Positions 55,782 through 58,700 of a DNA stretch of 64,000 nt are shown here, piece by piece. The translations under genes were made by a program, and so were the position numbers. This DNA is from Escherichia coli (GTDB lineage: Bacteria; Pseudomonadota; Gammaproteobacteria; Enterobacterales; Enterobacteriaceae): assembly GCF_009931435.1 (NCBI RefSeq), contig NZ_CP043414.1; one strand, 5' to 3'. How positions within the stretch are numbered: position 1 is the stretch's first letter; every line of letters begins with the position of its first letter. The notes below the pieces were generated by a model. The model made no database searches. It was given only the letters and a program-made list of their open reading frames with translations, and was not told the DNA's origin.

Positions 55782-58700
55782 TTAGTCAAACGGAGGTGGG
55801 GCCAATACTTCACGATTACCATTGTGCCCCTGTTCGCTGACAATCCCCTGCGCTTCCATCTGTTCGATAATCCGCGCCGCACGGTTATAACCAATGCGGA
55901 ACTGACGCTGTACGCCTGAAATTGACGCTTTGCGTTTTTCAGTGACAAACTGCACTGCCTGATCGAACAACGGATCCAATTCTTCAGCGCCATCGAAACC
56001 ACCCGCACCACCTTCGCTTTCGCTGTCGGAGGTGATGCCGTCAACATACTGTGGGCGACCACGCGCTTTCCAGTCCTGCACCACGGCATGAACTTCCTGA
56101 TCGCGAACAAAAGCACCATGAACACGTACCGGCAACGTGGAGTTCGGCCCAGAGTAAAGCATATCCCCCATACCCAGCAGTGATTCCGCGCCAGCCTGAT
56201 CAAGAATGGTACGTGAGTCAATCTTACTGGATACGGTAAAGGCGATACGGGTCGGAATATTCGCTTTAATCAGACCAGTAATAACATCAACCGATGGACG
56301 CTGAGTTGCCAGTACGAGGTGGATACCTGCAGCACGGGCTTTTTGCGCCAGACGTGCTATCAGCTCTTCCACTTTTTTACCTACCGTCATCATCAGGTCG
56401 GCAAATTCGTCCACCAACACCACAATGTACGGTTCCTTTTTCAGCACCGGATGCTGGGCATCCATACTGTCACCCGGCTTCCAGTACGGGTCTGGAATCG
56501 GACGCATCATGCGATCGGCTTCAGCAATTTTTTCGTTATAACCCGCCAGATTACGCACACCCAGTGCAGACATCAGTTTATAACGACGCTCCATCTCGTT
56601 AACACACCAGCGCAGCGCGTTGGCGGCATCTTTCATATCGGTAACGACTTCCGTTAACAGGTGCGGAATGCCTTCATAAACCGAAAGCTCCAGCATTTTC
56701 GGGTCGATCATGATGAAACGCACATCTTCTGGCTGTGCTTTATAAAGCATGCTCAGGATCATCGCGTTCACACCGACAGATTTACCGGAACCGGTAGTCC
56801 CCGCAACCAACAAGTGCGGCATTTTCGCCAGATCGGCAACCACCGGCTCACCGGCGATATCTTTACCCAGCACCACGGTTAATGGCGACGGATTATCGCG
56901 GAATTTGGCGTTATCCAAAACTTCGCGCAGATAAACGGTTTGTCGTTTTTTATTCGGTAACTCCAGACCTACATAAGGTTTGCCAGGAATAACTTCAACG
57001 ACACGCACCGCCACCGTCGAAAGTGAACGGGCAAGGTCACGTGACAAGTTAGAAATACGCGCCGCTTTTACGCCCGGTGCCAGGTTCAATTCAAAGCGAG
57101 TGATAACCGGCCCCGGAGAATAATTGACGACATCGGCTTTAATACGGAAATCAGCCAGACGCGCTTCCACCAGACGCGCCATTTGTTCAAGCGCAAAGGT
57201 ATCTACCGGCTCCACTTCGCTCGGCGGCGGTGTCAGCAAATCCAGAGAAGGCAGCGGCGTCGTAGGTTTATGCAACGGACGGCTGTCGCCATTACGCATT
57301 AACAGCGGATGAAGCAGGGTATCCTGCGGCTGCGGCGCAACTGGCTGTTGCGGCTGCTGATATTGCTGCTGTGGTGCAACCGGCTGTTGTGGCTGCTGAT
57401 ACTGCGGCTGTGGTGCAACCGGCTGTTGCGGCTGCTGATATTGCGGCTGCTGTGCAACCGGTTGTTGCGGCTGCTGATATTGTTGCTGCGGCGCAACTGG
57501 TTGTTGCGGCTGCTGATATTGTTGCTGCGGTGCTACCGGTTGTTGCGGCTGCTGTACAGGTTCAACAATTGGCGTAAACAGCGGTTCGTGTGGACCATCA
57601 TCCAGCAACGCTTTCATTGGCGAAAATTCAAAATCATCCAGCGAGAACGGATTCGCCCCAGCCGGTTGTTCGCCGGAATAACGTTGTTGTTGAGTTTGAG
57701 CAAACTGACGAGCCAGTTCTGCCTCTGCCGCAGCATCTGCATCTTCTGTGTTCACGGGCACATCATGTTGATACTGTTCGCCATAGCGTTGCTGCTGCGT
57801 TTGGGCGAACTGACGTGCCAGTTCATCCTGCTGCATCGCATCGATTTCATCATCGTTGTACTGATCGCCAGAATCGTACTGATTGCGCTGGGCTTCACGG
57901 GCTTTTTCTTCTGCTGCACGCTGTGAGGGCAGCTTAATGCCATATGACGCCAGTTCACGACGAGTTGGCACGCGGATACGTTTCGGTCGTGGCAACTGCG
58001 GGCCAATCCCCTCTTTGACCTGCGGACGCGGTCCACCGCTATTTGCCAGACTGAAGACTGGTGCGGCAACGGTTGCGGCAGCCCCCGTCGCCAGTGTCGC
58101 TTTTTTCACGCCAGATGCCAGAGGGGAAACAGCGGCAGCGGCTTCCACTGGAGGTACTGCTGCAACAGAAGGTGCTTTAAGCGAAGATTTGATCGGTTCT
58201 GGTTCTTTAACCGGTTCAGGAATCGGTTGATACCAGGCCGCAAGTTGTTCACGTTCACGGGCACGCTTCTCTTCCACTTCTTCAAAATAGTAAAGCGGCG
58301 GACGCGCGGGTTTTGTCTCTTCTACAATGGGTTCAGGCTCCACAACAGGCTGCTGTTCAACGGGTTGCGGCTGTTGGTACAACGGCTCCTGAGCGGCTGG
58401 CTGCTGATAAGTTTGCTCCGTCTGGTATGTAGACTGTGGAGCAAAAGTGGATTGCTGCTCTTCGGCTTGCCAGGCGTTACCTGCCACCGGTTGTTCTGGC
58501 GCAGGGGCGTAATACGGCTGTTGCGCAGACTGTTCCGGCGCAGGAGCGTAGTAAGGTTGTTGCACAGGCTGTTCAGCTGCAGGCGCATAATACGGCTGCT
58601 GTGGCTGTACAGGTTGTTGCAGCGGCTCATTATATTGCACTGCAGGCTGCGCATATTGTGACTGCTGTGGGTAACCTTCCGGTGCAGGTGCAATAACCGG

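Follow-up and report, generated by a model that had tools for sequence, protein, structure and literature searches.

Two tandem arrays in ftsK of Escherichia coli are already in use as typing loci. CVN001, from the Lindstedt generic E. coli MLVA, and ms07, from the Shigella/E. coli MLVA of Gorge et al., are one and the same locus, and ms06 of the Shigella/E. coli scheme is the other. For CVN001, the primer sequences and the allele formula, (amplicon-250)/39, have been published (PMC8143711), as have the primers and size ladders for ms07 (392-821 bp) and ms06 (301/340/379 bp) (PMC8215070). Typing studies found the ST131 clone to be monomorphic or nearly so for CVN001 (PMC5217547, PMC3877011, PMC3407997). 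In Salmonella enterica, a 39-bp VNTR in ftsK is likewise an MLVA typing locus, STTR7/SENTR2, with 9.3 copies in S. Enteritidis (PMC2430564). An 84-bp ftsK repeat indel has been exchanged between Salmonella Enteritidis strains, and no phenotype was detected (PMC6137255).

The repeats lie in the part of FtsK that joins the membrane anchor to the motor. This linker has been described as unstructured, rich in proline and glutamine, and different in length between species. Regions of it bind FtsQ, FtsL, FtsI, and FtsZ, and large linker mutations lead to filamentation (review, PMC5357621; the primary work on linker function, Bigot 2004 and Dubarry 2010, is cited via this review).

Repeat arrays of the FtsK linker and their typing loci

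The window, by which we mean the whole 64,000-nucleotide stretch of DNA that was analyzed, carries ftsK on its minus strand (Table 1). The initial annotation had put the open reading frame at 1342 codons, and this length is correct. The predicted protein scores above the individual cutoffs of PF13491, PF17854, PF01580, and PF09397. The corresponding domains are FtsK_4TM (residues 20-191), FtsK_alpha (853-953), FtsK_SpoIIIE (961-1174), and FtsK_gamma (1277-1337), that is, the 4TM anchor and the alpha, beta, and gamma parts of an FtsK/SpoIIIE DNA translocase. RefSeq annotates the orthologous coding sequence as "DNA translocase FtsK." Between anchor and motor, the linker consists of 15.6% Gln, 13.8% Pro, and 13.0% Ala.

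Table 1. Positions in the window of ftsK, its repeats, and the primer sites of the typing loci
Feature	Position	Strand	Description
ftsK CDS	55782..59810	minus	1342 aa, TTG start
FtsK of the window, main parts			4TM anchor aa 20-191; linker about aa 192-852; alpha/beta/gamma motor aa 853-1337
Array A	57315..57548	minus	six in-frame 39-bp units, PQQPVAPQ[QP]QYQQ, aa 755-832; CVN001 allele 5, ms07 allele 6
Array B	58485..58601	minus	three diverged 39-bp units, QQPYYAPA[AP]EQ[PS][VA], aa 404-442; ms06 allele 3
Duplicated 14-residue segment, copy 1	57783..57824	minus	aa 663-676; segment also in K-12
Duplicated 14-residue segment, copy 2	57678..57719	minus	aa 698-711; 35/42 nt same as copy 1
CVN001 forward primer site	57649..57667	minus	exact match
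CVN001 reverse primer site	57223..57242	plus	exact match
ms07 forward primer site	57795..57814	minus	2 mismatches
ms07 reverse primer site	57228..57247	plus	exact match
ms06 forward primer site	58692..58711	minus	1 mismatch
ms06 reverse primer site	58372..58391	plus	exact match

Tandem Repeats Finder (TRF) reports array A at 57325-57554, with a period of 39, 5.9 copies, 89% matches, no indels, and a score of 334. Array B, 1 kb upstream of array A, is reported at 58492-58598 with the same period, 2.7 copies, and 77% matches. In the entire 64-kb window, these two are the sole TRF matches with a score of at least 50, so the repeats are far beyond what chance would produce. When the units are set in register with the reading frame, array A resolves into six units, as the initial annotation had estimated, and the second, more degenerate family that it had placed at about 58495..58610 is equally real.

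The last unit of array A keeps 10 array residues and then runs straight into DTLLHP; from the end of the array to the FtsK_alpha domain there are 20 residues. Units 1 and 2 encode the same peptide. At the DNA level, no two units of the window's array A are identical; any pair has 3 to 7 differences per 39 nt, so nothing in the array points to a recent event in this strain. The longest exact run shared in register between units is 32 nt. Among the five full units, codon differences comprise 32 synonymous versus 10 nonsynonymous changes, and this excess suggests some constraint on the repeat peptide.

A duplicated segment had also been noted at about 57640..57850, and we found it as two copies of 14 residues between the two arrays. 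It occurs in a 13-residue form across Enterobacteriaceae. The pair is an old, fixed duplication that was invariant in the alleles examined.

We then placed the published primers on the window. The CVN001 primers flank array A and delimit an amplicon of 445 bp (57223..57667), which the formula converts to allele 5, (445-250)/39. With the ms07 primers, which flank the same array, the product is 587 bp, or 392+5x39, and this is allele 6. The unit is 39 bp, the size falls on the published ladder, and the copy number is polymorphic. Array A is the known CVN001/ms07 locus and does not differ from it in structure. Array B is ms06: its published primers give a 340-bp product, the unit is again 39 bp, and its alleles run from 2 to 4. 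The Salmonella locus STTR7/SENTR2 resembles array A in its 39-bp period, its location in ftsK, and its use in MLVA. It differs in species, copy number, and unit variants, and positional orthology was checked for subsp. arizonae only, which has 13-residue units at the same ftsK site.

Comparison with K-12 and variation in E. coli

The initial annotation had given the K-12 protein as 1329 residues long, in agreement with the RefSeq gene of 3990 nt, and had explained the 13-codon difference by one unit gained in array A. It had also named in advance the observation that would count against this explanation, an alignment to K-12 with equal repeat counts or with the indel outside the array. That is what we found. 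A 601-bp query spanning array A aligns to K-12 without a gap, and both protein and unit-by-unit DNA alignments give six units in the window and six in K-12. The single 13-residue gap between the two proteins is in array B, with three units in the window versus two in K-12. The ms06 locus, which lies outside the coordinates of array A, thus accounts for 1342 versus 1329 residues. Apart from the linker repeat arrays, the two FtsK proteins are separated by just a handful of substitutions.

Judged by its sequence, the additional array B unit is not a fresh slippage copy, since the three units share in-register exact runs of just 8-11 nt and other E. coli lineages (RMDEC465, BHUCD02) have a unit matching the middle one in the same position. 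Outgroups within Escherichia have two (Escherichia sp. MOD1-EC7003 and sp. E1V33), four (E. albertii), and five (E. whittamii) array B units. These counts give the difference no polarity, as a gain in the window or a loss in K-12.

To count units across the species, we searched evenly spaced samples of the 5,426 complete E. coli genomes with queries made of the 300-bp flanks only and measured the span that the flanks enclose. Six units of array A were present in 23 of 59 genomes, seven in 25, and eight in 3, with single cases of five, two, and one. The remaining genomes were off the ladder, by +15 nt in two and by -9, -15, and -63 nt in the others. For alleles of one or two units, collapse during assembly is possible in principle, and PCR typing independently reports such alleles. 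Array B had two units in 20 of 59 genomes, three in 18, and four in 20, plus one case of +27 nt. All of the observed length differences are divisible by three (+/-39n, +/-15, -9, -63, and +27 nt).

The upper end of the range came from a protein search, in which the matches listed were all from E. coli and long alleles were favored because extra repeats raise the score. This search returned FtsK proteins of 1355 to 1420 residues, with up to 12 units in array A. Over the species as a whole, array A has 1 to 12 units and array B has 2 to 4, and the earlier description of array A as variable in copy number stands. This picture agrees with published PCR typing, where CVN001 allele 5 makes up 40%, allele 6 40%, allele 7 13%, allele 8 5%, and allele 4 1% (PMC5217547), and where ms06 alleles 2, 3, and 4 and ms07 alleles 1 to 12 are on record (PMC8215070). 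Nine E. coli alleles of 1407 residues, most of them on contigs of roughly 4.73 Mb, have an 11-unit array. They are told apart mainly by Pro/Gln swaps, at positions that correspond from unit to unit, and either gene conversion among the units or errors of polishing could account for these swaps.

Annotated E. coli FtsK proteins form a 13-residue ladder from 1277 to 1420 residues, and this ladder is explained by the presence of two independent VNTRs in a single essential gene. Total length is homoplasious. FtsK of O157:H7 (E. coli O157:H7 SS TX 313-1) also has 1342 residues, but it is built from seven array A and two array B units, against six and three in the window. The length of FtsK is a misleading proxy for its repeat state.

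By length, the array A allele of the window is ordinary; six units is one of the two commonest lengths and is that of K-12 as well. By the order of its unit variants, the DNA allele is matched exactly in none of the 5,426 complete E. coli genomes; the closest reaches 96.7% over 601 bp. Units 3 to 6 are DNA-identical to those of strain RMDEC465. The complete E. coli genome closest to the window is 97.6% identical over ftsK and 99.1% identical over the adjoining 7.7 kb (dmsABC-serS-rarA-lolA), which indicates a lineage poorly represented among complete genomes. The window would seem to derive from an Escherichia/Shigella lineage that is divergent or under-sampled.

Several alleles show how array A may have changed. 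In RM14723 and Z0117EC0054, adjacent units are DNA-identical. The one-unit allele of HCP4S3_I4 equals what results when units 1 and 6 of a BHUCD02-type array are fused, and PSJ-32-1 has a BHUCD02-type array minus 63 bp. Gains of a 15-bp sub-unit encoding PQYQQ were seen, and the alleles of 1407-1420 residues contain amplified blocks of two and five units. Identical neighbors, fused units, and amplified blocks are the footprints expected of slippage or unequal exchange. RefSeq flags ftsK of RM14723 as a frameshifted pseudogene. Its repeat region reads in frame, and because ftsK is essential, the frameshift probably reflects a sequencing error in another part of the gene. We also asked whether BHUCD02 descends from K-12 and has since altered its array B, which would have been a case of instability within a lineage. 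It resembles MG1655 in genome size and in the position of ftsK, but its ftsK haplotype is not that of K-12, and the case was dropped as uninformative.

Taken together with the behavior of the locus within clones, described below, array A is very probably an in-frame coding minisatellite, or VNTR, in the unstructured Pro/Gln-rich linker just upstream of the translocase motor, one that changes slowly, is nearly neutral, and follows lineages. We infer that its copy number would change occasionally by replication slippage or unequal recombination, for which the exact runs shared between units, the longest about 32 nt, could serve. The 39-bp unit and the 15- and 24-bp sub-units are all multiples of three, so each event would add or remove whole peptide modules and leave the essential gene intact. 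If the linker tolerates a range of lengths, the resulting variants would be nearly neutral and would travel with clonal lineages.

Arrays at the same site across Enterobacteriaceae

For a view across genera, we used a degenerate DNA pattern for a 12-residue motif, which retrieved ftsK from 91 Enterobacteriaceae species representatives; those of E. coli, Shigella, E. fergusonii, and S. enterica subsp. enterica are not among these matches. In all of them, the segment just upstream of the motif is rich in Pro and Gln. Of the 80 loci whose upstream sequence was long enough, 57 have a tandem array in this segment. In Escherichia, Salmonella arizonae, Citrobacter, and Pseudescherichia, the arrays repeat every 39 nt, or at a multiple of this length (Escherichia sp. 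E1V33, Citrobacter sedlakii). Leclercia has periods of 36 or 45 nt, and Kosakonia and Pseudenterobacter have one of 42 nt. At the other 23 of these 80 loci, which include much of the Enterobacter cloacae complex and Klebsiella, an array at the array A site was not detected. Units are more similar within a species than between genera, the pattern that arises when a tandem array evolves in concert. Array B was seen only in Escherichia.

Two other repeats turned up in this survey. Upstream of HPLLMRNG in E. albertii NBRC 107761, a (GCTGCC)n tract encoding 11 alanines replaces the first array A units, so that a simple repeat of another kind occupies this site. At the array B position, FtsK of Klebsiella spp. 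has another, longer repeat family (e.g., YQPEPAYPPQHAYQPEQAPVQQPA) instead of the QQPYYAP array.

In-frame arrays that recur at one linker position across genera hint at some constraint on the repeat peptide. Considering this recurrence in most Enterobacteriaceae sampled together with the synonymous excess between units, the peptide repeats are probably under some selective constraint and are more than an arbitrary spacer; copy number may not be strictly neutral. One could go further and propose adaptive tuning of length, in which the number of modules is selected for the reach of FtsK or for its divisome contacts, with lineage-specific optima and slow adaptive change. The synonymous excess, the lineage-specific units and diverse periods found at a single site, and the contacts of the linker with FtsQ, FtsL, FtsI, and FtsZ, with filamentation as the outcome of large linker mutations (PMC5357621), all fit this proposal. 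However, a change of natural size had no detectable phenotype in Salmonella (PMC6137255), viable isolates carry anything from 1 to 12 units, and clonal structure alone is compatible with the allele distribution. We therefore regard adaptive tuning as unlikely.

We give about as little credence to a related idea, that the Pro/Gln modules at the junction of linker and motor are functional units, for example ones that contact the divisome multivalently or serve as an entropic spring, whose number and lineage-specific sequence are kept by selection and concerted evolution across Enterobacteriaceae. If this were true, natural copy-number alleles would subtly tune the coupling of septum closure to chromosome unlinking. 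We prefer the nearly neutral minisatellite reading. Array A is a routine typing marker, present in the window in a common length class, and it matters little beyond bookkeeping.

Stability of array A within clones

The initial annotation had gone on to suggest that array A may be a contingency-like locus. Simple-sequence contingency loci, as known from Haemophilus, Neisseria, and Campylobacter, consist of perfect units of 1-7 nt whose changes shift the reading frame or the spacing of a promoter. Their switching rates are high, and the genes affected act at the surface or in interaction with the host. Array A has in common with them a repeat-mediated change of length within a coding region. It is unlike them in having imperfect 39-bp units, in always staying in frame, in being stable within clones, and in belonging to an essential division gene. 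Of the hallmarks of a contingency locus, it shows neither perfect short repeats nor switching of expression or frame, nor frequent variation within a clone.

The clonal evidence comes largely from O157:H7. We examined the best 60 genomes of the O157:H7 lineage with a 100% flank match, among them EDL933, Sakai, TW14359, Xuzhou21, and strain 493/89. All 60 have the same 859-bp span, which corresponds to seven units. The K-12 records in our samples all have the K-12 length.

A hypermutable locus of the contingency kind would slip frequently and generate linker-length variants within a population, which would tune the spacing between anchor and motor. The range of 1 to 12 units across the species, the few alleles whose identical adjacent units indicate recent events, and the rare CVN001 variants inside ST131 are what such a locus might leave behind. 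Against it, the units are imperfect, with 89% matches and no exact run beyond 32 nt, and because every variant is in frame, there can be no on/off switching. The count in the window is that of K-12, the O157:H7-lineage genomes are uniform in length, ST131 is monomorphic or nearly so, and the Salmonella allele swap was without phenotype (PMC6137255). This reading is very improbable. With one allele in 60/60 O157:H7-lineage genomes, near-monomorphism in ST131, and long, imperfect, in-frame units, array A is a slow, lineage-marking minisatellite and not a contingency locus, its stability being judged from one large clone and the typing literature.

It is exceedingly unlikely that the repeat count of the window was collapsed or expanded in assembly, even though assemblies are well known to go wrong in tandem repeats and some database FtsK alleles of equal length differ only by Pro/Gln swaps in the array, possibly from polishing, because the units can be told apart, the array spans only about 234 bp, units 3 to 6 recur with identical DNA in the independent genome of RMDEC465, and six units is one of the two commonest lengths in complete genomes.

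Two more features of the window's ftsK may be mentioned. At the start of the linker, a 6-bp periodic tract on the minus strand (59133..59174; 7 copies, 69% matches) encodes an acidic patch of 14 residues, and K-12 and RMDEC465 are identical to the window there. On the plus strand, opposite array A, a Leu/Arg-rich open reading frame of 205 residues extends over 57309..57926. It looks like a mechanical by-product of a CAG/CCG-rich repeat on the opposite strand and not like a gene.
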